This document shows positions 24,060 through 57,563 of a DNA stretch of 64,000 nt, piece after piece (the stretch's first letter is position 1; each line of letters opens with the position of its first letter). The stretch spans positions 7,240 through 71,239 of the forward strand of contig CADCCQ010000027.1 of NCBI GenBank assembly GCA_902799955.1. The letters run 5' to 3'. Under the pieces are notes generated by a model. That model was not told where the DNA came from and made no database searches. It saw only the letters and a program-made list of their open reading frames with translations. Both the position numbers and the translations under genes were made by a program. The DNA is from an uncultured bacterium. GTDB taxonomy: Bacteria; Verrucomicrobiota; Kiritimatiellia; RFP12; UBA1067.

Positions 24060-24098
24060 GTGCATAGTATATCAAAATACGGAGGTTGAGAGAAGCCG

Positions 24099-29709: not shown

Positions 29710-29710
29710 T

Positions 29711-29767
29711 TGTGGAATTATGGAATTGTGGAATTGCGGAATTATGGAATTACGGAATTTAGGGAAT
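29711..29767. repeat. octamer tandem repeat T(A/G)(T/C)GGAAT, about 7 units
   Basis: tgtggaat tatggaat tgtggaat tgcggaat tatggaat tacggaat ttagggaat. Confidence 0.9.
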
Positions 29768-29793
29768 GATCAACTTTCAACTTAGCGGCAAGC

Positions 29794-30038
29794 CTAGAAT
29801 TCTAGGAACCTAGTAGCCTAGAAATCTAGAATTCTAGTAATCTAGCGACTTAGTAACATAACGATCTAGTGATCTAGAAAGCTAGAAATCTAGAATTCTA
29901 GTAGCCTAGTAACCTAGCAACCCTAGCAACTCTAGACAACCTAGCAAATCTAGCAACTCAAGTGACTCTAGCAACCCTAGCCAATCTAGTCAACCTAGAA
30001 ACCTAGAAACCTAGAAGCCTAGAATTCTAGAAACCTAG
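29794..30038. repeat. CTAG-core tandem array (8-9 bp units)
   Basis: 27 CTAG counted by eye, separated by variable 4- or 5-nt spacers, plus 3 degenerate units. Confidence 0.95.
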
Positions 30039-30139
30039 AAAAGTCTAAGGCCAGGAGCCAAAAGCCGAAAACACAAGATTTTGCGATTTGTCATTTTTCC
30101 ACTAGCAATGCATACATATATATGGTATAATACTCAACT

Positions 30140-31699
30140 ATGACTGAAAAGACTAGACACATCACAAAGAGCGTATGTGTCGCCACACTGCTGGCGTCAC
30201 TTGCACTGCTTTTCCCCGGATGCCCCGGATGCCGCGACAAGGACGACAACCAGACAGGGGAGGATGAGGAAGAGGTTGTCATCACCCCCAGGCGAACTCC
30301 AAAGAACGTCGACGAGCGCAATTTCTCCCCGCTTTCACCGCGGTTCAAGCCTTCTGACGCGATTATCCGCGTCAACGGGCGCGACATAACAAAAGCTGAA
30401 TACGACCTTTTCTGTAACCTCCAGGGCCAGATATACTGCCTTAAGCGTAGCTATCCCCTGAAGGGGAAGCGCAACAAGGAGCTAGACCGCTATCTCAAGA
30501 ACCTCGCGACTAAGGCAATTCAGGCGCTCGTGCGGCGCGAGCAGATGCGTCAGGCGGCGGAGAAGGCGGGCGTTACGGCGTCGGAGGAGAACATCAAGCG
30601 GGTCAAAAGGGATTTCATGATGTCTATCGGGCGTCCAAAGGAAACCTTCGAGTCCGTCGTGAAGCGACTTGGTCCGAAGTTCGGCCCTGCGCTCGAGGCG
30701 TCGATTTTGTCGGACGCCCGGGACGTGACGTATCTTGAGAAGTGGTCTCCCACCAACCTGACTGTCGTCACTCAGGAGGAGATAGACAAACAGAAGGCGT
30801 TCAACATCGAGTTCAACAAGCAGATAGCCGAGATGAACGCCGCCAGCCACCGCAAGGCCGAGGAGGCGCGCAAGGAGATCATCGAGAAGAACCGTCTCTT
30901 CAAGGACGTGGCGAAGGAGCGCGCGGAGCTGTTCCCGGAGCAGGGTGAGCACTGGGATGTCGTGGAACTTGCCGAGCTGGAGGCGTCCGATCCGTTCGCG
31001 CAGTGGCTTGTCAAGGCTGAAGTCGGCGACATTTCGCAGCCGATTGACTTCGACGACGGTCTTGCAATCGTCGGGCTCGTCTCGAAGGTGAAGTCAGACA
31101 GCAGCATCCACCCCGGGGAGGAGGCCGACATGTACGAGGTGGTACGCGTTTTGTTCAAGGCGTACGTGCCGCGCGAAATGCTGGAGACGGACGAAGAGTG
31201 GCGCGAGGCCATACTTGAATACCGCAGGAACGAGGCGCGTCGGGCGCTTGGTGCGGAGCTGAGCGCCAATGTGCAGATAGAGTTCCCCAACGGCGAATCG
31301 ATTTTCAACGTGAAGCCCAAGAAAAAGCCTGGCAAGGCCAAGCCCGCTCCTAATAATAAAAAGAAAGGTCCTGCGGGCAAGAAGCCGATGAAGCCGACGT
31401 CGAAAAACGCAAAGTCTGCGCCAAATGCGGCGGCGAAACCAGCTGCGGCGCCTGCGCCAGCTCCTGCGCCTGCGCCGAAATCTGTTGCGACTCCTTCACC
31501 TTCACCTTCACCTTCACCTGCGGCGAAGCCCGTTGCGGCACCCACTCCTAAACCTTCACCTTCACCTGCTCCTGCGGCGAAGCCCGCCCCTGCTGCGGCA
31601 CCTGCGCCCGCTCCTGCGCCCGCCCCAAAGCCAGAGGTAGGGAAAATTTCCGAACCCAAACCTGTAGATTCCGCGGCGGCGCCGCGTTCTAGCAAGTAG
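30140..31699 (+). CDS. SurA/PrsA-like (parvulin-type) chaperone lipoprotein with Lys- and Pro/Ala-rich tail
   Basis: hydrophobic leader ending LLFPGC; IIRVNGRDIT, QAAEKAGVTAS, FKDVAKE, VGDISQPI; PA/PS repeats at the C-terminus. Confidence 0.72.
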   Translation: MTEKTRHITKSVCVATLLASLALLFPGCPGCRDKDDNQTGEDEEEVVITPRRTPKNVDERNFSPLSPRFKPSDAIIRVNGRDITKAEYDLFCNLQGQIYCLKRSYPLKGKRNKELDRYLKNLATKAIQALVRREQMRQAAEKAGVTASEENIKRVKRDFMMSIGRPKETFESVVKRLGPKFGPALEASILSDARDVTYLEKWSPTNLTVVTQEEIDKQKAFNIEFNKQIAEMNAASHRKAEEARKEIIEKNRLFKDVAKERAELFPEQGEHWDVVELAELEASDPFAQWLVKAEVGDISQPIDFDDGLAIVGLVSKVKSDSSIHPGEEADMYEVVRVLFKAYVPREMLETDEEWREAILEYRRNEARRALGAELSANVQIEFPNGESIFNVKPKKKPGKAKPAPNNKKKGPAGKKPMKPTSKNAKSAPNAAAKPAAAPAPAPAPAPKSVATPSPSPSPSPAAKPVAAPTPKPSPSPAPAAKPAPAAAPAPAPAPAPKPEVGKISEPKPVDSAAAPRSSK

Positions 31700-31791
31700 G
31701 GGGTCAGAAAGTAAAAAAAAGATGTAACCTAGGCAGAAGACAAGTGTAAACAGACTGAGACATGTACCAACCAAGAAGGAAAACTAAGAAC

Positions 31792-34700
31792 ATGAAGAAA
31801 GTAGTATACGCACTGGTTGCCGCGCTGGCGGCATCCGTCGTCCAGGCTGGCCCCACAGCCGACTTCCTGAAGAGTGTCCTTGGCAAGTCCGCGGCGGCGA
31901 CGCCCGGACGCTGGAACTCTGACTTCAATAAGTGCAAGAAATACTGCGAAGACAACGGAGTTCCGTTCGTTGCCGTGTGGTCCAACGGCGATGCGTGCGG
32001 ACACTGCACGGCGTTCGAGAAGGCATGCGAGAAGTCGTATTTCAAGACATGGCAGAAGAAGTCGGGGATCGTCTTCTGGTTTGGCTGCCCGAGTAACGGC
32101 TTCAAGATGGACGACGCGGTGGCCGCCTTCAAGTGGACGCGCGCGAACTCCGGCCGCCTGTCGTACACAAGCGGCGGACCGCAGACGGCGTTCCCGTTCG
32201 TGCGAATCTACTGGCCTAAGGGCAAGGTCGACGTCTCGACCGTCGGCGACACGATGCGCGGCGGATTCAGCAGCAACGCCGACACGAGCGCCAAGAAGAT
32301 CACGCAGTTCATCGACGGCAAGCTGAAGGTCGGCAAGGCCGGCGGCTGGACGCCTGCGGGCGAGACGCCCAAGTACCTCGGCGGCGTCTTCGACCCGAAG
32401 ATCGACAACGTCGAGGGCGCGCGCATGGAGATCGAGACCGGCCTCACGACGAACATCACCATCACTCTCGTGCGTACGAACGCCAACTCGGTCGCGCATA
32501 CGGCGACGAACTTCCTGCACGCCGCCGGCTCGACGCTCGCGGGCGGGCAGAAGGAGATATACTGGGCGTCCGGCGTAGACACGATAGGAATGGTGCTTCC
32601 CATTGCGGCCAACGGCACGGGCGACCTTGTGGTTACGCTCTACGACAAGGACAACTCGACTTTGAAGGACACGTTCACCGTCAAGCGCGTGGCAAAGAAG
32701 GAGAACTCTCCCGAGAACCCGCTCTTCGTCGGCAAGGAGAGCGAGGGCCTCGGATGGGGCCAGTGGTCGATGGACCTTGACAAGGTGACGAACAAGGTCG
32801 CCTCCGCGAACGGCGGCCTGACGTCCGGCAAGCCTCGCCTCGGCGTGTCGCCTGCGTACGCGGCGGTGCTCTTCGGCGGCGCGATGTGGTGCCCCGACTG
32901 CGCGAAGAGCGACGAGTACTTCTTCAAGTCCACCGAATTCAAGAACTGGGCCGTCGACAACAAGATCGCGCTTGGCGTCGTCGACATCCCGAACCTGCCC
33001 AACCAGACAAACTCGCCGTGCCTGCTGACGACGATCTCCGCGACGACTGGCGCCGGGAATTTCCACGGCTACAGCAAGAGAAGCGGCCTCGACTACCTGA
33101 CGAGGCACATGATCTCTGCCGACGAGGCGCAGGTCGTGTACGACCGCAATGTGCAGCTCGCCTCGCACAACGTGCTGAACGGCGGATGGAATCGCCCCGA
33201 GCGCGCCAACCAGAACCGCCCCGGCGTGCCGATTCTGCTGCTCCTGCGCGGCGACGGCTCCATCGCCGGACGCTTCACCGCCCTTGCCAGCGTGAGCCCG
33301 ACCAGCACGGCCAACAACGCCGCGTACATCAAGAGGCTCAACGAGCTCCTCGAGCAGGCGAAGGACGACACCGAGGAGTCCAGCGACGGCGTGAAGACCA
33401 CCACCGGCCTCGAGGCCAGCCGCCGCTCGGAGAACAACGGCTCCATCTCGTGCAACGACGAGCGCGACATATACAGGATCGGCGCGGACTCCGCCGGGCT
33501 GAGGCTCCAGATGTGCTTCACCGCGGCCGACGCCGTCAACAACGACGCCGTCGTGGACTGCAGTGTCATCAACTCGAACGGAACGATAATGACGACGGCG
33601 AAGGGCGTCATCGGAGAGGGAGTCACGCTCGACTACATCGTCCCCACGGAAGGCGAGTACTTCGTGCAGATCGCGCAGGGCTTCCACCAGGAGACCGTCA
33701 ACGGCCGACCGACGTCCGTCCTCGACTCGCAGCTCTTCAACGCTACGAACCCGGCGTCGTCCGTCGTGAAGTACACGCTCGAGACCGACTTCGTGCTGGT
33801 GCCCAGGGAGAGGCGCGACGAGCGCGAGGGCGTCGGCGACAACATGGTGAAGATGTACCTCGAGGAGGGCGAGGAGTATTTCTTCGACGGCACGGTCAAC
33901 GCCGCCTCGATGACCGACGTGTTCGAGGAGGCCGGCCTGAACGCGGCGTCTAAGCCGATCTACAGGTCGAAGGTGACGGGCGTCGTCGACGTCTCGATCC
34001 CCGGGACGACTGTCGTCTACCAGAAGTGGCGCTGCGGCGCCGTCGGGTTCGGCGCGAAGGCCGCGACCGTATCCGAGTCCACCAAGCAGTTCGACATCCA
34101 AGTCGTCAGGACCGGCGGCGTCTCCGGCACGGCCGAGTACAAGGTCCAGTACGTCGGCGCGTTCAGGAACGGCAGCCCCTGCGACTTCGACAGGGACACG
34201 CTCCTGAAGGCTGAGTGGGACCTCGACGCGGGCACGGTCCTCTCGTGGGGCGACGGCGAGGGTGACGTCAAGACGGTCACGGTAACGGTTGTCGACAACC
34301 AGTTCGCCGACGGTACGGTCTCGTACCGCTTCGTCGGCACGACGGTCGGCGGTGACGCCACCGCGGACGAGGAGATGAAGAACTTCTCGCTGAACGTGAA
34401 GGACAACGACCGCAAGGTGCCGGGCGTGCTGGCGATCGCGGACAAAACGCCGAAGTTCTCGAAGACGATGACGATCATGGCAAAAGAGAACACGTCGGTC
34501 AGCCTGTTCGTGAAGCGCGAGGGCGGCGCCGACGGCGATTTCTCGGCGAAGCTGAAGACGAGTGCGGGTCAGTTCGAGGGCGGCGTCACCGAGACGACCC
34601 ACGACTGGGGCTCGCGCGACGACAGCCCGTGGGAGGTGGAGTTGACGCTTCCCAGCCGCGCCACCGCGAAGAGCGTGACGGTCGACCTCTCCCCGGCGAC

Positions 34701-36543
34701 GTCCGCCACCAAGGTGAAGACAGCCGCCAAGAGGCTCACGATCACGGTCCTCCCCGGAACGGTCCCGGAGTTCGTGAACAGTGGCGCGAACGTCGACGCG
34801 TTCTGCAACGTCACGCTCTCCACGGAGGTCGCCAGGGCCAGGACCGGGACCTATTCGAACCCGGCCAACCTGAAGTACAAGAAGGTGTCCGGCGCGCTGC
34901 CCGCGGGGCTCTCCGCCGTCGCGGACGAGGGCAACCCCGGCAAGCTGTACGTCGTCGGCACGCCCACGAAGAAGGGGACGTACACCGCCGTCTACAGGAT
35001 ATTCGACGGCGACGTGGGCGGCACCACGGTCTCCGTCACGGTCGCCGTCGGCGACCCGACGAAGGACACGTTCTACGCGGCGGACGCCGACCTCGACACG
35101 CCGCGCGCGGTCGTCCCGAACCCCGCGATGTCCGCCGGGAAGACGTACTACGACATCATGGTCAAGGACGGCGGGCACCTGATGGGCCTCGTCACCCTCT
35201 CCCTGCCCGCGAACGGCAAGGCGAGCGCCAAGTACCGCTCGGCGAACGGAACGGTCTCGCTCTCGGCCAAGAGCTGGTACGAGTTCGACCCGGAGACGGG
35301 CATCGCCGAGGCGTACCTCAAGGGCACGGGCGCGGCGGCCGACTACAGGCTGTATGCGAAGGTCAAGCCCGACGGGACGTTCGCCATCCTCGAGCTCACA
35401 GACCCGGAGGCCGGCAAGACCTACTCCGACCTCGAGGCCTTTGGCGGGTGGACCAAGGCCAGGCCCGCGACGGACTACAAGGGCTACTACACCGTCAGCC
35501 TCCCGGGCGTGGGCTCGGCCGGCCCGAACAACGAGACGCAGATCATAGACGGCGACCCGATCGCGCTTGGTGACGGCTACATGACGCTGAAGATGGACAC
35601 CGCCGCGGCGATGAACCAGGGCAAGTTCGCGTACGCGGGCCTGCTGCCGAACGGCAAGGCGGTCTCCGGCTCGGCGATCCTGACGCCTCTCTACAGCGGC
35701 GCCGCGACGAACGAGACGCACACGTACTGGGGCGTGGTTCCGTTCGTGAACGTCTCCGACACCGACGTCTTCACCGGCGCGGTGAAGATCCGCCCGAGGA
35801 CGGCGTTCGCGGGCGTCGAGGACGGCGCGACCAAGGACGGCGCCTACTACACCGGGTGCCGCGAAGGCGAGTACTGCGGCTACGACATCATCCGCAGGTC
35901 CGTCTACCAGTACGAGGCCGCCAAGCCGCTCTGGCAGCACTCTGAGCTGAACTACGACCCCGCGGACGAGGACAAGGTCTGCTACGACGTCGAGCTCGAC
36001 GCGTTCGGCACGTACTACAACGCGAAGGAGAACTTCAAGTCGGTGTTCGACAACTCGCTGCAGGCTAACGTGTTCTTCCATGTACTTGGTGGCGGAACCT
36101 GGGGGCTCGTGGACACCAAGTACGGCGACTTCGCCGGATGGGATCCCACGAAGCTCGGGGTGAAGGTCGCGACGACCGTGGACAAGAAGGGCGTCGTGAC
36201 GGCGAACGCGATCACGCTGGTGAACGCCACCAACCCGCGCGCGCTCACGTTCTCGTTCGCGTCCGCGACGGGCATCGTCACCGGCAAGTTCAAGCTCCCG
36301 ATGGAGTTCGGCGACGTGACGGTGAACTACAAGGCGATAGTCCTGCCGGGCTTCGGCAACAGCGGCTGCGACTGCGGGCTCGACTTCTCCGACGCGAAGA
36401 ACCGTCCGTTCATATCCGGCACGGCGTGGTTCGACGACGACGGCTCGTTCGACTACACCTACGGCCCCAAGGCCAACAAGCAGAAGATGCTGAAGGTCAG
36501 GAGGTCGTGCCCGGTCTCCGTCGGAACGGAGGCCGGCAAGTGA
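31792..36543 (+). CDS. giant secreted protein: two thioredoxin-like CxxC domains, Calx-beta-like and Ig-like domains, PVC-type C-terminal domain
   Basis: signal peptide; VAVWSNGDACGHC and FGGAMWCPDC; VVRTGGVSG..LSWGDGEGDVKTVTV; SGALPAGL; start at ATG 31792 (track 31762). Confidence 0.75.
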   Translation: MKKVVYALVAALAASVVQAGPTADFLKSVLGKSAAATPGRWNSDFNKCKKYCEDNGVPFVAVWSNGDACGHCTAFEKACEKSYFKTWQKKSGIVFWFGCPSNGFKMDDAVAAFKWTRANSGRLSYTSGGPQTAFPFVRIYWPKGKVDVSTVGDTMRGGFSSNADTSAKKITQFIDGKLKVGKAGGWTPAGETPKYLGGVFDPKIDNVEGARMEIETGLTTNITITLVRTNANSVAHTATNFLHAAGSTLAGGQKEIYWASGVDTIGMVLPIAANGTGDLVVTLYDKDNSTLKDTFTVKRVAKKENSPENPLFVGKESEGLGWGQWSMDLDKVTNKVASANGGLTSGKPRLGVSPAYAAVLFGGAMWCPDCAKSDEYFFKSTEFKNWAVDNKIALGVVDIPNLPNQTNSPCLLTTISATTGAGNFHGYSKRSGLDYLTRHMISADEAQVVYDRNVQLASHNVLNGGWNRPERANQNRPGVPILLLLRGDGSIAGRFTALASVSPTSTANNAAYIKRLNELLEQAKDDTEESSDGVKTTTGLEASRRSENNGSISCNDERDIYRIGADSAGLRLQMCFTAADAVNNDAVVDCSVINSNGTIMTTAKGVIGEGVTLDYIVPTEGEYFVQIAQGFHQETVNGRPTSVLDSQLFNATNPASSVVKYTLETDFVLVPRERRDEREGVGDNMVKMYLEEGEEYFFDGTVNAASMTDVFEEAGLNAASKPIYRSKVTGVVDVSIPGTTVVYQKWRCGAVGFGAKAATVSESTKQFDIQVVRTGGVSGTAEYKVQYVGAFRNGSPCDFDRDTLLKAEWDLDAGTVLSWGDGEGDVKTVTVTVVDNQFADGTVSYRFVGTTVGGDATADEEMKNFSLNVKDNDRKVPGVLAIADKTPKFSKTMTIMAKENTSVSLFVKREGGADGDFSAKLKTSAGQFEGGVTETTHDWGSRDDSPWEVELTLPSRATAKSVTVDLSPATSATKVKTAAKRLTITVLPGTVPEFVNSGANVDAFCNVTLSTEVARARTGTYSNPANLKYKKVSGALPAGLSAVADEGNPGKLYVVGTPTKKGTYTAVYRIFDGDVGGTTVSVTVAVGDPTKDTFYAADADLDTPRAVVPNPAMSAGKTYYDIMVKDGGHLMGLVTLSLPANGKASAKYRSANGTVSLSAKSWYEFDPETGIAEAYLKGTGAAADYRLYAKVKPDGTFAILELTDPEAGKTYSDLEAFGGWTKARPATDYKGYYTVSLPGVGSAGPNNETQIIDGDPIALGDGYMTLKMDTAAAMNQGKFAYAGLLPNGKAVSGSAILTPLYSGAATNETHTYWGVVPFVNVSDTDVFTGAVKIRPRTAFAGVEDGATKDGAYYTGCREGEYCGYDIIRRSVYQYEAAKPLWQHSELNYDPADEDKVCYDVELDAFGTYYNAKENFKSVFDNSLQANVFFHVLGGGTWGLVDTKYGDFAGWDPTKLGVKVATTVDKKGVVTANAITLVNATNPRALTFSFASATGIVTGKFKLPMEFGDVTVNYKAIVLPGFGNSGCDCGLDFSDAKNRPFISGTAWFDDDGSFDYTYGPKANKQKMLKVRRSCPVSVGTEAGK

Positions 36544-36589
36544 CCGGCGGCAGAGGATTGACAGAAGGAGCGATCTAACAGAAAGGCAC

Positions 36590-39500
36590 ATGAAGATGAT
36601 GAAAAAGACGATAGTGACGTTTCTCGCGGCGATAACCGCTTTCAGCGTGTGGGCCGCCAAGACGGGAAGCCGCATGGAGGACGCCAAGAAGATCAAGGTC
36701 GGCGGATCCGCTACGGTGAAGCTGGTCGCGGAGTACGACGAGTTCGACAAGTCGTACGACTCCGACAGCGGCGTTTACTGGCTCAAGGTCCAGCTGAACA
36801 GGGGCTCTTCCTACACGGTCTGGATCCAGGGCGGGTCCGCCGGGACGGTCGGCATGGACATCGACACGGCGGACACCGAGGACGACGACGACGTTCCCGG
36901 CGCTTCGTTCGACGACGTCGTGAGCGCCACCTACAACGGCGCGCCGATCCAGTACGCCCACATGGCGGCCGACGCCTGGGACTCGGAGGACCCCTCCAAG
37001 TTCTACTACGCGATCTGCATCACCGGCGACGTCGGCAACCAGACGACGGTGTACGTGCAGTCCGGCATCCGTAACTTCTCCCAGAAGGGCGACGAGAACA
37101 GCCCCGAGGCGGTGTCCTTCACGACCGGCTGGAAGTCGGTGACGAGGAAGCTCATCGACGGCAACTACTACCTCAAGGCGACGCTCAGCGCTGGGTGCAA
37201 GTACCGCGTCCGCACCCTGAAGGGCACCGTCGCGAAGCCACTCGACCTCGCGGTCGACACGGCCAGCGACGAGCTGACATACGACGACTGGTCGGACCCG
37301 CTCTATGTGAAGGACTCCAACTACACCAAGACGCAGAATGTCGCGACGGTCATTGTCCCGGACTCGAAGGGCACGTTCCTCTTCGAGGTCTCCGACGCCA
37401 CCAAGGCGGGCTCCAACCTCAACGGGCAGTTCACCTTCTCGTTCAAGAGGGTCCCGGCGCTTGCGATCGGCTCGCACAAGGCCGTCACCCTCAGCCCGGA
37501 GAACGGCTGGTCGCACCAGTTCGTCCCCGGCAGGATCTCCGCCGACGAGAACTACTACGACAGCATCATCGACGAGAACCTCTGCGTGATCTCGCTCGCC
37601 AAGGGCGACCGCGTGGTCTTCGACACCGACGACGCGTTCGACGCGACGTACGAGATGATCGTGTACAACCCGTCCGGCAAGATCATCGGCAGGAACACCA
37701 CCGTCGGCAACGGCAGCTACGACATGCGCGTGGCGATCCAGGCCGACGTGGCGGGCAAGTACTACGTCGGCGTGTACGACACGACGCTCGACGTGGGCGA
37801 CAGGCCGCCCGCCGAGGCGACGCCCCTGACCCTCACCGCGTACTTCGCGGACGACAAGTTCGGCCCGGCCGACGCGGCCGACCCCGTGGACGACGTGTTC
37901 TCGGGCGCTACCGAGCTCGTCCCCGCGCCGCTATCCTACGGACAGGACGTCCTTGTCGGCGGCTCCCAGAGCGAGGTACACGCGTTCAACGGCGGCGACT
38001 GGCGCGACTGGTACAAGGTCGCCTGCCGCGCCGGGCAGACCTACCAGTTCAAGGCGGAGTACGCCAGCGACGAGACGACGGACATCGTCCTCGGCTACGA
38101 GATATGCACGCTCAACTCCAAGGGCGTCCCCGCAAGGGTCACGTACGCGTCCGGCACGAAGACGTACGTCGAGGGCGATACGCTCGAGGACGGCGTGACG
38201 CTCAACGCGACGAAGAACGCGATGTACTACATCAGGGTGTTCCCCGCGCTCACCGACGGTACGAACGTCATCGAGACGGCGGGCCTGGACTACCCGGACT
38301 ACAGGGTCCGCTCGGGCGTCACGAAGGTCAAGGCGTTCAACGCCGCGACCGACGTGGTCACCGACCCGGTTACGGGCGAGAAGGTCACCAACGTGGTCGA
38401 CATCGCGCTCGGCAAGCTCGTCGTGAAGTCGACCGGCGTGGCAGGCACATATTCGCTGGGCACCGAGACGACGACGTACCCGACAGGCACCTCCCTTGAG
38501 CTCGCCGCCAACAGCTACACGGTCAAGTACACCCCGCCGACCGGATTCAAGGCCACCCTCGCCTCCGAGGTCGCCGCGATCGAGGCCTGGGACACGAACT
38601 CCTCGACGAGGGTCGTCGCCGACCAGCCCGTGACCACGCTGACCGCGCGCTTCTACGACATCTACGACCAGAAGTACGTGATGTCCACGACGAAGAAGAC
38701 CACGACGAAGACGGTGAACGGCAAGAAGACGACCGTCACGACGACAGTGAACAACTACTCGCCAGAGACGGGCGACAACACGATGGAGGGCGCGTTCGCG
38801 CTGCCTGCGCCGACCAACACGACGAAGACCGTCCGCCGCTCGCTCTACGTGGAGGACACCACGGACTTCTTCAAGTTCACGGCCGTGGCAGGCCGCGCAT
38901 ACACGCTCTCGCTCGCCGACTACGTAGACGGCGGCGCGACGGGCGCGGTGATGACGCTCATCCACGCGAGCAACGGCGTGCTGCCGCAGTTCTCGAAGGT
39001 GAAGACCGTCGACAAGGCGCTGCTCCCCGCCGGCGTGATCTACGTCCAGGTCGAGCACGCCGAGGGCTGCGAGGACAAGGACTCCTCCTATGCGCTCTCC
39101 TACCAGGCGATGAACGTCGGCACCGTCGGCTTCACCGCGGCGAACTTCAACGCCGCGGAGTCCGGCGAGTACGCCACGCTCACGCTGAAGCGCACGGCGA
39201 AGCAGGGCGCCGTCTCGGTCAACTACACGACCGTGGCCGGCACGGCGCAGCCGGGCAGCGAGTACTACCCCGCGAGCGGCGTCGTCAAGTGGGCGTCCGG
39301 CGACATGGCCAACAAGACGATCAAGATAAGGCTCATCCCCGACCTTGAGCCGACCTGGGAGTCGAACAAGGTGTTCACCGTCAGGCTGTGGGAGGCCGAG
39401 AGGGCCGACTTCGCCGCCGGCGACTACCCGGTGGGATTCATCGCCGGGCGCGACTCCGCCACTGTGACGATCACCGAGGCGACCGCGGTTAAGGCGGGCA

Positions 39501-42500
39501 CGGTCTCCATCACCGGCTACGGCCCGAGCGAGTCCGAGATCACGCCCGTCGCCAACCTCAAGGCGCCGGTGGTCTCCGGCCAGGTCGGCGCGCCGCTCGT
39601 CCTCAGGCTGTCGCGCACTGGCGGCACCAACGGCATCGTCGGCGTGAAGTTCGCGTTCCCCGGCAAGAACGGCAAGGTGGTCGACACCGCCGTGAAGGCG
39701 AAGGACTACGTGGCGCGTGCCGAGACTGACGACGTCGTCAACACCGTCGTCTGGGAGAACTTCGACGCGACCGACAAGTACGTCACGATCAACACCCTCA
39801 TGACGACGAACTACACGCTCTCCAAGCAGTTCACGTTCACCCTCGCGGCGCTCACGACGAAGGGTTACGCAAAGCCCGCGCTCTCCGCCGCGACCGGGAC
39901 CGCGAAGCTCATCAACAACACCGTCGGCACCACCGCCGCGTCGTTCGCGAACACCGTCAAGGCGGTGGGCGGCATCACGCAGGCCGTGACCGGCACGTGG
40001 TACGTCGACAGGAACGACGGCGAGTTCAAGAGTTCGCCGGCGAACGCCACGCTCACCTACACGCTCACGGGCCCTGGCTTCTTCGCCATCAAGCCGCGCC
40101 TCAACGACGGCGGCGACGCCGAGACGCCGTCCACCGCGACGCTCAAGCTCCAGATCGGCACGCTCAACGCGAAGAAGGCCTTCGTCGCGTCCGAGACGAT
40201 CGACTGCCTGGCGGAGGGCGCGCCCGAGAGGATCGAGAGGCTGATCGCCGGCTCGAAGGTCGTCAAGCTCACGTTCGCCGGCGGCAACAAGAAGGAGTTC
40301 GTCGAGCTCGAGAACGACGCCGACACCGGCCTGCCGTTCAAGTGGGTGAGGTTCGCCACCGTGGCGGCCGACAGGCCCATGGCCAAGTCCGTCGTCACGA
40401 CGAACGGCCTCGAGTCGCTCAGGTGGAAGGTTCCCGCGGCGCTGCAGGACGAGAACATAAAGGTCGTCGCGAGGTTCGGCACGGTCGCCAAGCTCGCCGC
40501 CGCCCACGACCTCGTCACCAACGATGTGGACGTGGCCAGCGCCCCGATCGCGGAGGGGACGCTCCTGCCCGCCAAGACATACTACTGGACGCTTGCGTTC
40601 GGCCTCGGCGACGAGCCGGAGACCTGGATCGCCCATCCGACGACGTGGAGCTTCTCTGTCATCAAGGACGGCTTCCCGGAGACATCCTTTGGCGGCCTTG
40701 ACCCGTGGGGCGACAACATTTCCCTGAAGATCGCGAAGGAGGAGCCGATCACGCTGATCCAGACGCTCAAGGCGCCGCTCACGCTCACCGGCACGGCGTC
40801 CGCGAACCGCTTCAGGCTTGCCGGCGGCAAGCTGCCCCCGGGGCTCGCCATCAACGCGACGACCGGCAAGCTCACCGGCGCGCCGTCGACGCCCGGCGAA
40901 TACGATGCGCTGCTCCAGGCCTACTACTACAAGCAGACGACCAAGACCGTGAACAGGAAGAAGGTCACGACCACGACGACGAACTACGGCACGACCCAGC
41001 AGGTCAAGTTCATCGTCGAACCGGCGGGCCTTGCGATCGGCACGTTCAGGGGCGCCCTCGTTGAGACCGGCGCGCAGGTGTCGAAGAACTCCGCCAAGAC
41101 CGGCCTCGTGACCGTCTCCACGACGTCCGCCGGCAAGATCACCGCGACCGTCAAGGTCTCCGGCAACTCCTACACGTTCACCGGCACGGGCTATGACGAG
41201 CTGACCGACGAGAAGGACGACGGCGGGCTCGGCCGCGAGTTCTCGGTGAAGCTCAGGAACATCACCTCGCTCGTGAAGACGACGACGAAGACCGTGAACG
41301 GCAAGAAGACGACCGTCAAGACGTCGACGCCGTACACCAACGAGCTCGAGCTCGTCGTCTGGGACGGCTCCGTCACCAACGCCACCGCCATCGGCGAGTC
41401 GATCGGCTCGGCGAGGCTCGTGATGAACGTGCCCAACACGCTTGTCGCGAAGGCGACGACGATGGAAGGCGGCATCGAGTACAACGCGGAGCTCTTCCGC
41501 GCCTGCGGCGGCACGGACGTCGGCAAGGCGGCCCTCGCGCCGTTCGCCGGGTACTATACGATCGCCCTTGCGCCAAGCGGAGTCTCCGCGGCCGACGGCG
41601 TCCCGCTCGGCAACGGCTACCTCACGATGACGCTCTCGGAGACGGGCGGCGCGACGTTCGCCGGAATGCTCGCGGACGGCGCGGCGGTCTCCGTCTCCTC
41701 CGCGGCGTCGGTGCAGGGCGCGGACGTCCTCGACCCCGACCAGTGCGTGGTTTGCATACCGTTCCACTTCTCCGCCGACATCCGCTCGGTCACCGGCGTC
41801 ATGAAGCTCGTCTACGCGACCGACGGCGACGGCAACGCCGCGCCGGTCGTGGACTCGACGTCCATGTTCCTCTGGAGCCGCGACAAGGCGGCGGCCGCTT
41901 CGCTCGACGGCCTCGGCTACGCCATCGACGTCGCGCCGACGGGCGGCTGGTACAACAAGACGTGGAACGTCCAGCGCTACTACCTCGACAGCGACCTCGC
42001 CATACAGGCCGCCGGCGCGGAGGAGCTCGCCGCCGTCGCCGACGCGACCGGCACCCTCGGCACGGGCTACGAGTTCAAGCCGTACTGCACGCCGACCGAC
42101 CTCTCGGTCAAGCTGACGAACAACGGCGTGTCGGTCGACAAGCGCGCTCTCGTGAAGGAGTCGTCGACGCTCCTCTACGACCTCGCCAAGAGCGTCAACC
42201 CGTGGGCGGCCACGTACTCCTACGCCAGGGCGACCGGCCTTGTCTCCGGCACGTTCTCCGCCTGGAAGGAGACCCCGGCGACGACGAAGCAGGGCGAGAT
42301 CAAGAGCATCGCCCACAAGGGCGTGATGATCTTCTTCCGCGACGACGCTTCGCCGCTGGACGAGAACGCCTGGTCCGCCGGTTACTACCTGATCCAGGCC
42401 ACCAAGAACTGGAAGGCGTCGCTGCCGTTCAACGTGATCGCCACGCCGATCAGCGGCGGGCGCGACTGGAACGAGACGCCCGTCCCCGGCGAGGAACCTG

Positions 42501-42511
42501 ACGGGGACTGA
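36590..42511 (+). CDS. giant secreted protein with Calx-beta-like and Ig-like domains and the same C-terminal domain as the upstream gene
   Basis: signal peptide; VSVNYTTVAGTAQPGSEY..SGVVKWASGD; GGKLPPGLAINATTGKLTGAP; GYYTIAL..GNGYLTMTL; three TTKTVN(G/R)KK motifs. Confidence 0.75.
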   Translation: MKMMKKTIVTFLAAITAFSVWAAKTGSRMEDAKKIKVGGSATVKLVAEYDEFDKSYDSDSGVYWLKVQLNRGSSYTVWIQGGSAGTVGMDIDTADTEDDDDVPGASFDDVVSATYNGAPIQYAHMAADAWDSEDPSKFYYAICITGDVGNQTTVYVQSGIRNFSQKGDENSPEAVSFTTGWKSVTRKLIDGNYYLKATLSAGCKYRVRTLKGTVAKPLDLAVDTASDELTYDDWSDPLYVKDSNYTKTQNVATVIVPDSKGTFLFEVSDATKAGSNLNGQFTFSFKRVPALAIGSHKAVTLSPENGWSHQFVPGRISADENYYDSIIDENLCVISLAKGDRVVFDTDDAFDATYEMIVYNPSGKIIGRNTTVGNGSYDMRVAIQADVAGKYYVGVYDTTLDVGDRPPAEATPLTLTAYFADDKFGPADAADPVDDVFSGATELVPAPLSYGQDVLVGGSQSEVHAFNGGDWRDWYKVACRAGQTYQFKAEYASDETTDIVLGYEICTLNSKGVPARVTYASGTKTYVEGDTLEDGVTLNATKNAMYYIRVFPALTDGTNVIETAGLDYPDYRVRSGVTKVKAFNAATDVVTDPVTGEKVTNVVDIALGKLVVKSTGVAGTYSLGTETTTYPTGTSLELAANSYTVKYTPPTGFKATLASEVAAIEAWDTNSSTRVVADQPVTTLTARFYDIYDQKYVMSTTKKTTTKTVNGKKTTVTTTVNNYSPETGDNTMEGAFALPAPTNTTKTVRRSLYVEDTTDFFKFTAVAGRAYTLSLADYVDGGATGAVMTLIHASNGVLPQFSKVKTVDKALLPAGVIYVQVEHAEGCEDKDSSYALSYQAMNVGTVGFTAANFNAAESGEYATLTLKRTAKQGAVSVNYTTVAGTAQPGSEYYPASGVVKWASGDMANKTIKIRLIPDLEPTWESNKVFTVRLWEAERADFAAGDYPVGFIAGRDSATVTITEATAVKAGTVSITGYGPSESEITPVANLKAPVVSGQVGAPLVLRLSRTGGTNGIVGVKFAFPGKNGKVVDTAVKAKDYVARAETDDVVNTVVWENFDATDKYVTINTLMTTNYTLSKQFTFTLAALTTKGYAKPALSAATGTAKLINNTVGTTAASFANTVKAVGGITQAVTGTWYVDRNDGEFKSSPANATLTYTLTGPGFFAIKPRLNDGGDAETPSTATLKLQIGTLNAKKAFVASETIDCLAEGAPERIERLIAGSKVVKLTFAGGNKKEFVELENDADTGLPFKWVRFATVAADRPMAKSVVTTNGLESLRWKVPAALQDENIKVVARFGTVAKLAAAHDLVTNDVDVASAPIAEGTLLPAKTYYWTLAFGLGDEPETWIAHPTTWSFSVIKDGFPETSFGGLDPWGDNISLKIAKEEPITLIQTLKAPLTLTGTASANRFRLAGGKLPPGLAINATTGKLTGAPSTPGEYDALLQAYYYKQTTKTVNRKKVTTTTTNYGTTQQVKFIVEPAGLAIGTFRGALVETGAQVSKNSAKTGLVTVSTTSAGKITATVKVSGNSYTFTGTGYDELTDEKDDGGLGREFSVKLRNITSLVKTTTKTVNGKKTTVKTSTPYTNELELVVWDGSVTNATAIGESIGSARLVMNVPNTLVAKATTMEGGIEYNAELFRACGGTDVGKAALAPFAGYYTIALAPSGVSAADGVPLGNGYLTMTLSETGGATFAGMLADGAAVSVSSAASVQGADVLDPDQCVVCIPFHFSADIRSVTGVMKLVYATDGDGNAAPVVDSTSMFLWSRDKAAAASLDGLGYAIDVAPTGGWYNKTWNVQRYYLDSDLAIQAAGAEELAAVADATGTLGTGYEFKPYCTPTDLSVKLTNNGVSVDKRALVKESSTLLYDLAKSVNPWAATYSYARATGLVSGTFSAWKETPATTKQGEIKSIAHKGVMIFFRDDASPLDENAWSAGYYLIQATKNWKASLPFNVIATPISGGRDWNETPVPGEEPDGD

Positions 42512-42516
42512 GCGAG

Positions 42517-44445
42517 ATGAAGCCATACCGCCTTGCCCTTGTGGCAGCGCTCCTCGGAGGGTCGCTTCTTGCGGCCCCCGGGGAGTTCCCGCTTTCATCG
42601 GCGTACATCGCGCCGGCAAACCAGATCTTCTACCGCCTCAGGCACGAGAACGGACTCTACCGCGAGTTCCAGCGCGACATTGAGACGCCGCAGCTGATGC
42701 TTGGCGCTGGCGGATGGAAGGGCTTTTTCGAAGGCGGGCACATCGTCATCCAGGCGCCCGGCAAGGCGAATGGCGAGGTCCCCCCGACGTGGGTATTCCT
42801 CAACGGACGCGTCACGCGGTTCATCGCGCCCGGCGTCACGAACGACATTCCGTACAACGCCGCGCGCAAGGCCCCCGAGGGCGTCGCGCCGCCGTACTTC
42901 TTCGGCACCAGGCAGGAGGCGGCAGCCGTCGGCGCGAAGAAGGCGAAGAAGGACGCGAAGAACATAACGAAGAACCTCTTCAAGAACAAGTGGGACGGCA
43001 AGGAGCGCCTGACATGGCCTTTCGCGAACCCCAACGAGAACGGCTTCCTCTTCGCCGGGTTCGCGATTCTCGCGTTCGCCCTCCTGCTCAACGGCGAAAG
43101 GCCGATAAAGGCGCTGATTCGCCCCGGCACCGACGCGCTCGTCGTCGTGGTCGTGGTTAAGGTCGTGGGCGCGGTGCTTTTCGCCGGTTTCAGCGGACTT
43201 ATGTTCCTGACGTTCTCCAGGGGCGCGTTCCTCGCCGCCTTTGTCGGCTGCATTGCAGTCGCAGGCTTCGGGTTCAGGAGCTTCAAGTGCAAGGCCACCC
43301 TGATCGCCGTCGCCGTCATCGCCGGGGTGATGCTCGCCGGCGCGGCCGGCGTCGTGTGCCATCGCGGCGTGGACAATATGAAGAAGGTCCTCTTCCGGGG
43401 CTTCAACGGCAAGTCCTCCTGGTCCAACCAGGTTCGCTACGACATGTGGAAGGCCGCGCCCAGGATGATGCTCGACGCCCCGTATGGATGGGAGGGCGTG
43501 AACGTCGGGCGGGCCTATCTCGACTGGTACGAGCAGGTCGACATCCTCACCGCGCCGGGGTCCCTCATGAACGACCACCTGACGCGCATGACGCGCTACG
43601 GGTGGAGGGGACGCTCCGTCTATGCGTTTTCGTGGCTCGCCCTGCTTGCCGCGCTTGCGATGTGGGGCGCGAGGAAGGGCAACGGCGCGCCGTTCGGGGC
43701 GGTCCTGGCATTCGGCGTCGCCGCATGGTTCAACCCCGTGATGCCGAATCCATACCTGTGGGCCGTTCCGGTGCTGTCGCTTCTTGTCGTCGCCGCCGAC
43801 GCCTGGCGCTGGCGCGGAAAGGCGACGGTGTACTGCCTGTCGGCGGCGTCCCTCTTCGGAGCAGCCGCGACAGGCGTGGTCGCATGGTCCATATACCTCA
43901 AAGGCGAGGGCGCCAGGGCGGAGGCCCGCAAGGCAAGGCCGGACGTCTCGGTCAGGGTCGAGCGGACCGGTGCCGTGCTGGTGAAGAACCTGAAGAACCC
44001 GTCGATCTGGGTCCTCGACGACGGGAACACGCTTGGCGGGATCTTCACCTGCAAAGAGATACGAAGCACGTACATGCGCGGGAAGTCCATCCCCGGAATC
44101 GCCTACGCGAGGCGCGTCGACCAGCTTCCGGAGAAGGGCGTGAAGAGGCTCGTGCTGGGCGGCGAGGTCGGCGACGAATGGCTCAAGAAGGTCGCGAAGG
44201 ACGAGAACGCCCGCAAGAACCTGCCGCCGGAGGTCGTGTTCATCTCCCCGCCGTTCCCGCCGTCGGCCATCCCGACCGCGCTTCTGGACGAATGCAACGT
44301 GAAATACGTCACAGGCGAGTTCAACGCGCGCCACTACCCCGAGATCACCGGCCCGGAGGCCAGCCCTCCGCCGTGGGTGGAGGTAGAGAGGGGTATGGAG
44401 CTCTACATCATGGGCTGGATGCGCTACGCCATCGGGCGGTGGTAA
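42517..44445 (+). CDS. O-antigen ligase-like (Wzy_C) membrane protein with soluble N- and C-terminal extensions
   Basis: FANPNENG, FLTFSRGAFLA, loop with VRYDMWKAA, several TM helices. Confidence 0.68.
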   Translation: MKPYRLALVAALLGGSLLAAPGEFPLSSAYIAPANQIFYRLRHENGLYREFQRDIETPQLMLGAGGWKGFFEGGHIVIQAPGKANGEVPPTWVFLNGRVTRFIAPGVTNDIPYNAARKAPEGVAPPYFFGTRQEAAAVGAKKAKKDAKNITKNLFKNKWDGKERLTWPFANPNENGFLFAGFAILAFALLLNGERPIKALIRPGTDALVVVVVVKVVGAVLFAGFSGLMFLTFSRGAFLAAFVGCIAVAGFGFRSFKCKATLIAVAVIAGVMLAGAAGVVCHRGVDNMKKVLFRGFNGKSSWSNQVRYDMWKAAPRMMLDAPYGWEGVNVGRAYLDWYEQVDILTAPGSLMNDHLTRMTRYGWRGRSVYAFSWLALLAALAMWGARKGNGAPFGAVLAFGVAAWFNPVMPNPYLWAVPVLSLLVVAADAWRWRGKATVYCLSAASLFGAAATGVVAWSIYLKGEGARAEARKARPDVSVRVERTGAVLVKNLKNPSIWVLDDGNTLGGIFTCKEIRSTYMRGKSIPGIAYARRVDQLPEKGVKRLVLGGEVGDEWLKKVAKDENARKNLPPEVVFISPPFPPSAIPTALLDECNVKYVTGEFNARHYPEITGPEASPPPWVEVERGMELYIMGWMRYAIGRW

Positions 44446-44467: not shown

Positions 44468-44553
44468 TGTGGCATTATACCTGTATGCGGGCGTTCTGAC
44501 GAAGAGGAATGATTCACGGCGGCATTGAAAACCTTGTTTTGTTGTGGTATAAT
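44468..44553 (+). repeat. 75-bp promoter-bearing repeat unit upstream of the HzsA-like cluster
   Basis: TGTGG at 44468 and 44543; GCGTTCTGACGAAGA; TTTTGTTGTGGTATAAT ends 7 nt before ATG 44561. Confidence 0.75.
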
Positions 44554-44560
44554 TTCCTCC

Positions 44561-47500
44561 ATGAGGAAAATGACATTCACTGCAGTTCGCGCGCGACTGG
44601 CCTTCCTGGCCGTGGTCGCAGCCACGGCTACGATTAGTGCTGAGCCGACGGCGTTGAAGGACGCCGCGTTCAGGCTAGACGCGGCGAACGCCGCGACGCT
44701 CACTGTCGACGAGGGCGGGCGCGTCCTGGAATGGCGTTCCTGCGCGGGCGGCGGCGCGGCGACTCCGCGCGCCAAGTTCGGCAAGCCCGTCCTGAAGAAG
44801 GACGCCGCGGGGCGCCCGTTCGTCGATTTCGGCGCGCAGGGCAGCTGCATCGACCTGGCGTTCCCCAGGGTCGAGGGGATACGCACCGTGTTCGCGGTCG
44901 GGAAGTTCGCAGAGTCGAACTACTGCCACGTCCTCTGCGACGGCGTGGAGTACAACTTCCACCGCGGCGACGACGGCGCGTATGCGTCCGCTGATTGGTC
45001 TAAGATCGCGAAGGCGTGGGACGGCACGAACGAGGTGGTGTGCATCCACTCCGAAATCATGCCGTCCGACGGCGTCAGGGTCTTCTGCCTGGAGATGCGC
45101 GAGCCGAGTTTCGCCGACAGGCTCACGGGCGACAGGGACTTCGCCGATCGCAACGGCGGGCGCGAGCTTCGCGAGGTCGTCGTCTTCCGCCGCGTACTCT
45201 CCGACGCCGAGCGCCTCGAGGTGACGCGGCACCTCTCCGGCAAGTGGCATGCCCTCGACACGCCGCCCGCCAGGCGCTCGTTGAACACTGACTGGCGGCT
45301 CATCAGGCGCGACATCGACAACTGGCACCGACTGCCCACAAACACCCTGGACACTTCCGCCAACGCCGCCGCCTGCATCCTCCCCTGCGACGCCGACCCG
45401 CTCGTGGTGGCGCTGCGCCGCACGCGCGCGCTCATCGACGACCTCGCGCCGTCGGTCGACCTCGCCGCCGAGCGCGCGGAGTTCGCCGGCCTTGCGGCGG
45501 ACGCCTTTGCCGCCATCGACGAGACGTCCCGATGGGAGCTCTTCGCGCGCGTAATGGCGCTCAACCGCCGCGTCGCCCTGAAGAACCCGCTACTCAAGGG
45601 AATTGACCGACTGCTCTTCGTCACGCACGAGCCGTGCGGTTTCAACGAGTGGCGCGACGGTTCGCACATGTGCGACCAGTACTACGGCTTCCACGGCACG
45701 CAGAACGGCATCTCGCGTGGCGACGGACTCTACATCCTGGAAAACCCGTTCTCCGAGAAGCCGGTCGCGCGCAACATCCTCGCCGGCAAGGTAATCGAGT
45801 CGGGCGCGTGGAAGGGGCAGACCCTCGACGGCTGCGCGATTATTTCGCCGGACATCGACTGGGACGGCAGGCGCATCGCGTTCGCCGCCGTGAAGAACAA
45901 CAGCAAGCTCGACAAGTGGGAGGACGGCACATGCTACCACGTGTTCACGTGCAACCTCGACGGCTCGAACCTGCGCCAGCTCACCAGCGGGCCGTGGAAC
46001 GAGTTTGATCCGTGCTGGCTGCCGAACGGGCGAATCGCGTTCATCTCCGAGCGGCGTGGCGGCTACGTGCGCTGCTCGGGAAATCGTCCCGTACCGTCCT
46101 TCACGCTCCACACGATGTTCGACGACGGCACGGACATCGTGCGCCTCTCGCACCACGAGACGAACGAGTGGCATCCGAGCGTGAACAACGACGGCATGAT
46201 CGTCTACACGCGCTGGGACTACGTCGATCGCGGTTCCGGCCAGGCGCACCACGCATGGACGTGTTTCCCCGATGGACGCGACCCGCGCGAGCTGAACGGC
46301 AACACGCGCATCAACTCGAAAACCACGCCCCGGATGGAGATGAACATCCGCCAGATTCCGGGTTCGCGCAAGTACGTCTCCACCGCCACGCCACACCATG
46401 GCTGGGCGGCTGGTTCGCTCATCGTGATTGATCCCTCGGTGCCAGACGACGGCGAGATGAGCGCCATCCGCCGCATCACGCCGGAACAGCCGTTTCCCGA
46501 GGCGGAGCAGAACACTTTCCGCAACCGCAACAGCGGCTCGTATGCGACGGCGTGGCCGCTCAGCGAGAAGTACTTCATCTGCGCCTACGACGGCGACGCG
46601 AACGGAATGTACAAGGTGCCGATGCGCGGGCGCCGCTATGCGATCACTCTCGTCGACGTCTTCGGCAACAAGACGCGGCTCTACACGCACCCCGGGACGT
46701 CGTGCCTCGACCCGATGCCGCTGATGGCGAGAAAACGGCCGCCGGTGATCCCCCACAAGACGCTCGAAGGCGCGCCCAGGGGATGGGTTTATCCGGAAAA
46801 TCCGGTGAAGACGGGCGAGATCGGCCTCATCAACGTCTACGACACGCGCATCCCGTTCCCGACGAACGAGACAATCACCGCCCTGCGCGTGTGGCAGCTC
46901 TTCCCGAAGGTGAAGCCGCTGCAGCAGAAACCGTGGCTCGGTGCAGAAGTCCACCAGACCGGACGCCAGTGCCTCGGCACGGTGCCGGTGGAGGCGGACG
47001 GCAGCGCGTATTTCACCGCGCCCGTGGGCGTGCCCATTTTCTTCCAGGCGCTCCGTGCTGACGGTTGCGCCGTGCAGAGCATGCGCAGCGACACGTACCT
47101 GCACCCCGGCGAACGGCTTTTGTGCGCAGGGTGCCACGAGCCCAAGGAGAACACGCGCCGCACGGCGTTTTCATCCCTCCCGCTTGCGATGCGCCGCGTG
47201 CCAAGCGCGATCAAGCCAGGGCCCGACGGCTCAGCGCCGTTCAACTACGCGCGTCTCGTGCAGCCCGTCCTCGACAGGAAGTGCGTTTCCTGCCACGGGG
47301 AGAAGCGCAAGCCGAAGGCGCCCGATCTCCGCGCGGGCGACTGGCGCAAGGACAAGTGGGGCTTCTCGACGAGCTGGAGCAATCTCGTACATCGCACCAA
47401 CTACTTTGCCTGGGAAATGGTCGAGAGGAAGCGAACGGATTGGGCGTTCTTCACGCCCGCCTATACGGAGCCTGGCCGCTATCTTGCGATGAACGCCCCG

Positions 47501-47662: not shown

Positions 47663-47668
47663 CGGACC

Positions 47669-50122: not shown

Positions 50123-50227
50123 CCCGCAATGAAGAGCACGACAGCCTTGCCCCCATTGCGGCGGGGAAAGAAAAATGGTATAATTCTCAATGGCGGGCCG
50201 GGGAAGGACTTCTCGGCAATGTGAACT

Positions 50228-57501: not shown

Positions 57502-57563
57502 GTTCTGCAACGGTGGAAAAGGTTTCTGCCGGAATGCAAAGTGACCATGCAGAAGGAGACCAA

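Follow-up and report, generated by a model that had tools for sequence, protein, structure and literature searches.

A four-gene operon and the module it belongs to

We analysed a 64,000-nt stretch of DNA (the window) of contig CADCCQ010000027.1, from the genome of an uncultured Kiritimatiellia bacterium (GCA_902799955.1; 92% complete, G000 below), and within it an operon of four genes, P0001 to P0004. They encode a parvulin-type chaperone, two giant secreted proteins and an O-antigen-ligase-like membrane protein. The operon represents one form of an accessory envelope module conserved in a rumen and gut Kiritimatiellae genus. As judged from sequence, the core of this module is a PpiD/PrsA-like parvulin together with one or more large Sec-exported Cys-rich proteins. 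These core giants begin with C(G/S)xC and CPxC thioredoxin-fold domains and end in a shared beta-barrel-rich C-terminal domain (Cdom). The genes and domains of the operon are as follows, with protein lengths and positions in amino acids (aa).

30140..31699, + strand: P0001, 519 aa, PpiD/PrsA-like parvulin chaperone, probable lipoprotein
31762..36543, + strand: P0002, 1593 aa (alternative start 31792), secreted; Trx1, Trx2, middle region and shared C-terminal domain
31885..32322, + strand: Trx1 domain of P0002, aa 42-187, with CGHC at aa 79-82 (found with locus-derived hidden Markov models, HMMs)
32743..33360, + strand: Trx2 domain of P0002, aa 328-533, with CPDC at aa 377-380 (locus-derived HMMs)
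35470..36441, + strand: Cdom of P0002, aa 1237-1560 (from BLASTP, a 21-sequence alignment and an AlphaFold2 (AF2) model)
36590..42511, + strand: P0003, 1973 aa, secreted; PPC-like, Calx-beta and He_PIG domains and the same C-terminal domain as P0002
41528..42475, + strand: Cdom copy of P0003, aa 1647-1962, related to that of P0002
42517..44445, + strand: P0004, 642 aa, membrane protein of the WaaL/PglL superfamily

An initial annotation had described four co-oriented, closely spaced genes, and all four open reading frames (ORFs) are indeed present on the plus strand where it had placed them. The gaps between them are 62 or 92, 46 and 5 bp; the first is 62 bp if P0002 starts at 31762 and 92 bp if it starts at the internal ATG at 31792, which yields the ~1580 aa of the initial annotation. 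The window is chromosomal, carrying secA, gyrB, tyrS and lptF/G. None of the four operon genes has a paralogue elsewhere in G000.

Conservation of the module across the genus

The initial annotation had proposed a dedicated pathway around the giants, a proposal that a lack of synteny among relatives would have undercut. We mapped 28 loci around members of the P0004 family with HMMs derived from the loci themselves. Counting the window's own, there are 30 ligase-like genes, which reduce to 26 non-redundant ones (median pairwise identity 31%) once one identical contig and two groups of at least 91% identity are merged. Synteny holds: the foldase and the first giant each accompany the ligase-like gene in 24 of the 26 loci. 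The counts for the 26 non-redundant, ligase-bearing loci are these.

Parvulin gene: 24/26; the misses are one contig end and one locus, L019
Trx1-headed protein: 24/26; the misses are one contig end and one locus, L019
P0003-like giant: 5/26; always directly after the P0002-like gene
c3, a small Cys-rich secreted protein (~260 aa, no Pfam match): 19/26 (counted by hand); not in the window

The neighbourhood is conserved well beyond chance, and a functional linkage of these genes is well supported. In several loci the ligase-like gene shares a 4-bp start/stop overlap with the preceding parvulin or Trx gene. Three gene orders recur.

Parvulin, giant, (second giant), ligase-like gene
Parvulin, small Trx1 protein, ligase-like gene, Trx2 protein
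Parvulin, ligase-like gene, Trx1 protein, with the Trx2 protein further on

On a quick maximum-likelihood tree of the ligase-like proteins the gene orders group together, with 7 changes against a mean of 16.4 after shuffling. In one genome, G409 (loci L023 and L031), the ligase-like gene is present three times; two of the copies belong to divergent modules of different gene-order classes that lie 10 kb apart on one contig.

The ligase-like gene is the less constant part. Its family occurs in 29 of the 117 genomes of the window's genus (7 of the 32 high-quality ones), and the Trx1 head in 56 of the 117. Among these 56 are 27 of the 29 ligase-positive genomes; the other 29 are without the ligase family, by hand comparison. 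From Trx1-positive, ligase-negative genomes we took 12 loci, with the following content.

Thioredoxin giant: 12/12
Parvulin gene: 11/12
c3: 10/12
P0003-like giant: 4/12; directly after the P0002-like gene
Match to the ligase-core HMM at E<=1e-3: 0/12
Conserved split gene pair directly after the giant: 4/12
Bac_transf gene: 2/12

By these comparative counts the ligase-like gene is an add-on to a core of parvulin and thioredoxin giant, joining about half of its carriers. The second (Calx-beta) giant is accessory, present in 5 of the 26 ligase-bearing loci. The two-subunit structure that the initial annotation had envisaged finds no direct support.

Beyond the genus, 301 genomes sampled evenly across the phylum gave a full-length P0004 match in G000 only, and nine other genomes matched in the transmembrane core alone. 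At E<=1e-30 the family comprises 425 representative clusters, nearly all of 570-630 aa and matched over their full length. The 15 close relatives of P0004 are all unnamed, two named records place the family in Kiritimatiellae metagenome-assembled genomes, and the ESM Atlas matches are to generic O-antigen-ligase clusters only. DNA of this stretch occurs in bovine, sheep and other animal gut metagenomes (20 runs, 11 studies).

The parvulin chaperone and the thioredoxin-headed giant

P0001 scores above the Pfam cut-offs for Rotamase (29.7 bits; cut-off 21.7) and SurA_N_3 (27.8 bits; cut-off 27.2), the combination by which we class it as a PpiD/PrsA-like parvulin peptidyl-prolyl isomerase. Its match to the NCBIfam peptidylprolyl isomerase PRK00059 (E 4.9e-10, 39.3 bits) is far under the equivalog cut-off of 303, so we give it no orthologue name. 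The description of P0001 as a parvulin-like lipoprotein therefore stands in its first part; as to the second, an 'LFPGC' motif puts a Cys at the place that (A/V/S)GC occupies in about half of its homologues, and a lipoprotein is plausible. From aa ~390 to 519 (31310-31699) P0001 has a long Pro/Ala/Ser/Lys-rich tail that is peculiar to this genome among the 27 homologues listed, the rest of which have short, Lys-rich ends.

P0002 has no Pfam match at E<=0.01, and the Calx-beta/Ig-like domains once attributed to both giants are shown for P0003 only. What had been overlooked is that two CxxC thioredoxin-fold domains head P0002. HMMs derived from related loci find the CxxC conserved in 34/34 homologous Trx1 domains and in 25/25 Trx2 domains (C-P-x-C in 24, CLWC in one), counts in which two pairs of nearly identical loci are included. 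Both Cys are invariant across 25 aligned Trx1 heads, as is a Pro where the cis-Pro loop is expected. On these two features the P0002 heads are classed as thioredoxin-fold oxidoreductases, and the conservation of both argues for redox activity. P0002 homologues match Pfam Thioredoxin_7 (for example, 33.4 and 35.0 bits; cut-off 27); P0002 itself does not at E<=0.01. There is also a weak NCBIfam DsbH match at aa 367-417, within Trx2. CGHC and CGYC are the motifs of PDI and DsbC, and CPHC is that of DsbA; we take the CGHC of Trx1 to be like PDI/DsbC and the CPDC of Trx2 to be like DsbA. A phmmer search for P0002 relatives among Protein Data Bank (PDB) sequences returned chance matches only (E>=0.098), which we discarded.

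P0002 holds 21 Cys, and models for DsbA, DsbB and VKOR have no match in the 92%-complete genome, which has two DsbD_TM matches. This setting bears on the possibility that the transferase has the Trx-headed proteins and the parvulin as working partners and not as substrates, all together forming a periplasmic machine that would couple disulfide handling, prolyl isomerisation and glycosylation of many exported proteins. The invariant CxxC and Pro of the heads, the DsbD-like gene in a genome where DsbA, DsbB and VKOR were not found, and the 4-bp overlaps of the ligase-like gene with a preceding Trx or parvulin gene all fit such a machine. The heads, however, belong to proteins with adhesin-like domains, 420 to 1640 aa long, and not to membrane subunits, and of the 56 Trx1-positive genomes 29 have the Trx/parvulin core but no transferase. 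We regard the partner role as improbable.

Elsewhere in G000, on contig C70 (locus L042, 5698-8730), a gene for a Wzy_C protein (536 aa) is directly followed by one for a DsbD-like protein with DsbD_TM and thioredoxin domains (458 aa), one of the two DsbD_TM matches of the genome. The pair lies in a dxr-rseP-ispG housekeeping row and is a second adjacency of ligase family and thiol redox in this genome.

The second giant and the shared C-terminal domain

In P0003, Pfam Calx-beta (PF03160) scores 44.4 bits (cut-off 27) and He_PIG 25.8 bits, with a weak PPC match. Pfam scans returned only these three families for P0003 and nothing for P0002, with no search aimed at S-layer families, and the 'surface layer' label that the initial annotation had put forward for the locus is unsupported.

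The homologous C-terminal region claimed for both giants is real, if distant. P0002 and P0003 share 24% identity over 285 aa there (BLASTP, E 2e-6), and profiles built from either copy match the other. The AF2 model of Cdom (mean predicted local distance difference test score (pLDDT) 72.7) consists of two predicted beta-barrel halves. Foldseek aligns it, at a low TM-score (~0.2), to two-barrel enzymes and DUF3598, and at that level we claim no fold family. The N-terminal beta domain of P0004 was considered as a further Cdom copy and dropped (profile-profile probability 0.1).

A Wzy_C-family protein that is neither a classical WaaL nor a PglL

The description of P0004 as a Wzy_C-like membrane protein is borne out by the Pfam Wzy_C model (PF04932), which it matches with 34.7 bits (cut-off 31.7) and which matches 17/17 members of its family. 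Its AF2 model (pLDDT 82.9) comprises a signal peptide, a beta domain (aa 27-114), a core of eight helices (172-473) and an alpha/beta domain (479-642). The positions of R235, R307 and H354 are invariant in the alignment of all 17 members. R235 and R307 align with Arg at 7tpg chain positions 191 and 265 (HMM alignment, counted by hand). The spacing of the three residues is 72/47, against 73/50 for R215, R288 and H338 of Escherichia coli WaaL, the His being assigned by spacing only. PMC3643930 names these E. coli residues, which are conserved in the periplasmic loops.

The WaaL of Cupriavidus metallidurans (7tpg/7tpj) is the top structural match of P0004 (Foldseek E 6e-4) and its only sequence match in the PDB (E 0.0023). 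By VIA the two superpose with a Z of 11.8 and a root-mean-square deviation of 5.4 over 249 residues, model 162-434 on chain 137-407. Because the alignment starts at WaaL residue 137, roughly the first 136 WaaL residues have no counterpart in P0004, and the full WaaL architecture of 12 helices is not reached by its core of eight. The initial annotation had called for P0004 to be compared with WaaL and with PglL, and it comes out as neither: an ordinary WaaL is contradicted by the eight helices, the two extra domains and the patchy occurrence, and a PglL by the models PglL_A (PF15864) and Wzy_C_2 (PF11846), which match 0/17 family members at E<=10. We regard P0004 as a member of the superfamily outside both classical types, for which catalysis is plausible from the conserved residues and the model.

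The C-terminal domain of P0004 resembles alpha/beta-hydrolase-like folds (Z ~6). A hydrolase triad in it was considered and rejected, there being no invariant His in this domain. G000 has three Wzy_C genes besides P0004.

Sugar-donor genes and replacement of the transferase in relatives

Within the window no sugar genes flank the operon, and P0004 has no genes for lipopolysaccharide (LPS) core or O-antigen beside it. The earlier statement that no sugar-biosynthesis genes are nearby is thus correct for this window and does not extend to relatives, several of which have a phosphoglycosyl transferase gene abutting the ligase-like gene. Such a gene, of the Bac_transf family, lies downstream in 5 of the 26 non-redundant loci and abuts or overlaps the ligase-like gene in three. 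In G386 the genes that follow it on the same strand encode a cytidylyltransferase, a Wzx-type flippase, a Polysacc_synt_2 dehydratase, a DegT aminotransferase and NeuB. G000 has a 67%-identical Bac_transf gene, unlinked, on contig C40.

The order in G386, with Bac_transf and a Wzx-type flippase after the ligase-like gene, is one that could be expected if P0004 were a Wzy-type polymerase of a Wzx/Wzy-dependent polysaccharide and the giants mere neighbours in a gene island for surface structures; the Pfam Wzy_C model covers polymerases too. We nevertheless consider a polymerase very unlikely. Bac_transf is missing within the fetched flanks of 21 of the 26 non-redundant loci, no ORF scanned between the module genes or next to them matches a Pfam glycosyltransferase family, and the linkage to parvulin and Trx-headed protein holds at a median identity of 31%.

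In four of the 12 ligase-less loci (L048, L050, L052 and L057) an adjacent pair of ORFs (~242 aa and ~260-308 aa) comes directly after the thioredoxin giant. From its sequence, the pair looks like a split GT-C transferase: the first ORF matches Pfam PMT_2 (GT-C) with 28 bits (cut-off 26.1) in each of the two loci scanned with the correct ORF, and the pair stays two ORFs in all four genomes, in differing relative frames. A tblastn search found no PMT_2-like pair in G000. One position of the module seems to be filled by a WaaL-like transferase, a GT-C transferase or nothing, which argues that polyprenol-linked periplasmic sugar transfer is an optional layer on a folding-plus-giant core. ArnT, which modifies lipid A, is a member of the PMT_2 family. 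The replacement accords with either kind of acceptor, because both enzyme families include LPS-directed and protein-directed members.

The same comparisons raise the possibility of a lipid-directed ligase (WaaL/TacL-like) that would transfer glycan onto lipid A-core or another glycolipid, the giants binding the glycoconjugate non-covalently, for example through the C-terminal beta-barrel domain; the sugar would then build an anchor rather than decorate a protein. Among solved structures WaaL is the closest, no other PDB sequence matches, the PglL marker is absent from all 17 family members searched, the gene that replaces P0004 in four ligase-less loci matches the family of ArnT, and the Cdom model weakly matches ligand-binding beta-barrel proteins. 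In our estimate such a ligase is nonetheless unlikely, while deserving serious attention. In the window P0004 lies outside any LPS or O-antigen locus, its family is patchy even within the genus, it has no equivalent of the N-terminal part of WaaL, and its two extra domains are conserved only in its own family. It is, moreover, strictly linked to secreted proteins and a protein chaperone.

A candidate glycan transferase for co-encoded proteins

The reading that we favour, tentatively and without calling it probable, is that P0004 is a dedicated periplasmic glycan transferase acting on the co-encoded proteins. It draws on what is observed: gene content, synteny, the fold, the conservation of catalytic and CxxC residues, and sugar-donor genes adjacent to the ligase-like gene in relatives. 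From the fold, the conserved residues and these donor genes we reasonably infer transfer of glycan from a polyprenol carrier. A phosphoglycosyl transferase (in G000 the unlinked one on C40) would start a short glycan on undecaprenyl phosphate, and the lipid-linked glycan would be flipped to the periplasmic face. There the WaaL-type Arg/Arg/His site of P0004, in a periplasmic loop, would move it to hydroxyls of the co-encoded secreted proteins, which the two family-specific periplasmic domains might recognise. The parvulin and the thioredoxin heads of the giants would keep these giant, disulfide-rich chains foldable.

Several points weigh against a dedicated protein transferase. The PglL models fail to match the family, as noted. 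The Bac_transf gene of G000 sits among housekeeping genes, and the adjacency of Bac_transf to the ligase-like gene stems from a few related sub-clades. The ligase-like gene is gone from all 12 loci of the ligase-less set, so the giants can do without it. The archetypes of both transferase families, WaaL and ArnT, act on lipid A-core, and the replacement of one by the other fits an LPS acceptor equally well. Both family-specific domains of P0004 are probably periplasmic according to the model, a placement that follows the positive-inside rule as read by hand and not computed. Topology, donor, acceptor, every enzymatic step and glycosylation itself are what we infer from the genes. As to expression, four RNA libraries, each of another study, gave contigs from strains of 95-99% identity that cover parts of P0002, P0003 and P0004; among the pieces listed, these contigs bridge the P0003/P0004 junction in three of the four runs and the P0002/P0003 junction in one. 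Expression of the operon genes is possible on this basis. The RNA evidence consists of contigs only, RNA libraries can contain DNA, and a bridging contig proves neither transcription nor a single transcript.

Comparison with known systems

Of the described protein-directed enzymes, PglL, PilO (TfpO) and PglS are in the same Wzy_C superfamily as P0004, with Arg/Arg/His at the same positions. Like theirs (PMC3643930), the gene runs in the same direction as secreted candidate substrates, follows them directly and lies outside LPS loci; the same paper reports that PglL-type enzymes adjoin their substrate in 21 of 31 cases and that low-complexity stretches, of which the P0001 tail is one, are typical acceptor regions of PglL-type systems. 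The P0004 family differs in lacking PglL_A and Wzy_C_2, in having 8 rather than ~12-13 transmembrane helices, and in its family-specific N-terminal beta and C-terminal alpha/beta domains. In place of pilins, it has thioredoxin-headed giants and a parvulin beside it.

WaaL of C. metallidurans is the best structural match and shares the two aligned Wzy_C-motif Arg, whereas P0004 has only the part corresponding to WaaL residues 137-407, and its family is no housekeeping one (29/117 genomes), lies outside the LPS cluster and shares G000 with three further Wzy_C genes. TacL, the lipoteichoic acid ligase of Streptococcus pneumoniae, is likewise of the Wzy_C family and transfers an undecaprenyl-pyrophosphate-linked chain onto a non-LPS acceptor, showing the broad acceptor range of the family (PMC5727136); it is a Gram-positive enzyme with a glycolipid acceptor and is not known to have thioredoxin or parvulin partners.

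The likeness of the ArnT-type GT-C enzymes is one of position: the split pair takes the place of P0004 in 4 of the 12 ligase-less loci, which suggests an interchangeable periplasmic transferase using polyprenol-linked sugar. The pair is not homologous to P0004, was not found in G000 and is barely above the Pfam cut-off.

Ost3 and Ost6 are thioredoxin-fold subunits of the eukaryotic oligosaccharyltransferase, whose catalytic subunit STT3 is a GT-C enzyme. The module resembles that enzyme in combining a lipid-linked-glycan transferase with exoplasmic CxxC thioredoxin-fold domains; it differs in that the catalytic fold is unrelated, the thioredoxin domains head soluble giants and the association observed here is one of genes. 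Carried further, the parallel would make the module a bacterial counterpart of the folding-and-glycosylation station of the endoplasmic reticulum. A WaaL-fold transferase, a prolyl isomerase and PDI-type (CGHC) and DsbA-type (CPxC) thioredoxin domains would work in one complex, coupling disulfide formation, prolyl isomerisation and glycan attachment as the giants leave Sec, with WaaL-like and PMT-like transferases interchangeable, in an anaerobe where DsbA, DsbB and VKOR were not found. We offer this as speculation with little chance of being right.

Flanking signals and neighbouring genes

Two candidate promoter sites frame the operon.

30123..30131, + strand: TGGTATAAT, extended -10-like motif and candidate promoter, 8 nt before the first ATG (read from the sequence)
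44525..44553, + strand: strong promoter-like site after the operon, 11/12 positions with TG (promoter scan)

The first, which the initial annotation had set ahead of the operon, is present as described and amounts to a consensus match only; the promoter scan does not list it because it has no fitting -35 box. If used, it would leave the first gene nearly leaderless, given its distance from the start codon. The second is likely, from its position and sequence, to be the start of a separate downstream unit. Directly 3' of the operon (44525-52774) lies a tandem array of three paralogues (about 1045, 817 and 848 aa), which match PD40 and the HZS_alpha middle domain and have their own promoter-like site.

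The intergenic region upstream holds 6.4 copies of an 8-bp ATTATGGA unit (29709-29759) and ~30 copies of an 8-bp CCTAGAAA-like unit (29793-30041). CTAG is rare in G000 (0.51 per kb) yet packed into 15 dense arrays on 12 contigs, the window's contig among them. Further upstream lie genes for a 774-aa BspA-type leucine-rich-repeat protein (15888-18212, + strand) and an 1832-aa M12-like metallopeptidase with CHB_HEX_C domains (18567-24065, - strand); a fragment resembling the latter adjoins the module copy in locus L031. A 1481-aa ORF without a Pfam match (57513-61958, + strand) lies in a lower-GC part of the window (0.54-0.58).

Implications

We found no published description of the module in the literature searched (supplements were outside the search). 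Enzymes of the O-antigen-ligase family act on LPS, glycolipids or proteins, and few protein-directed classes have been described. P0004 represents a large unnamed family whose architecture is new and whose partners are constant, which makes it possible to guess the acceptor and put the guess to a direct test. The Sec-exported giants bring PDI-like and DsbA-like heads of their own to rumen anaerobes in which DsbA, DsbB and VKOR were not found. The apparent swap of WaaL-like and PMT_2-like transferases at one position of the module is a natural experiment on the purpose of the sugar. If P0004 does prove to be a new O-linking transferase with defined substrates, it could be of interest for glycoengineering.

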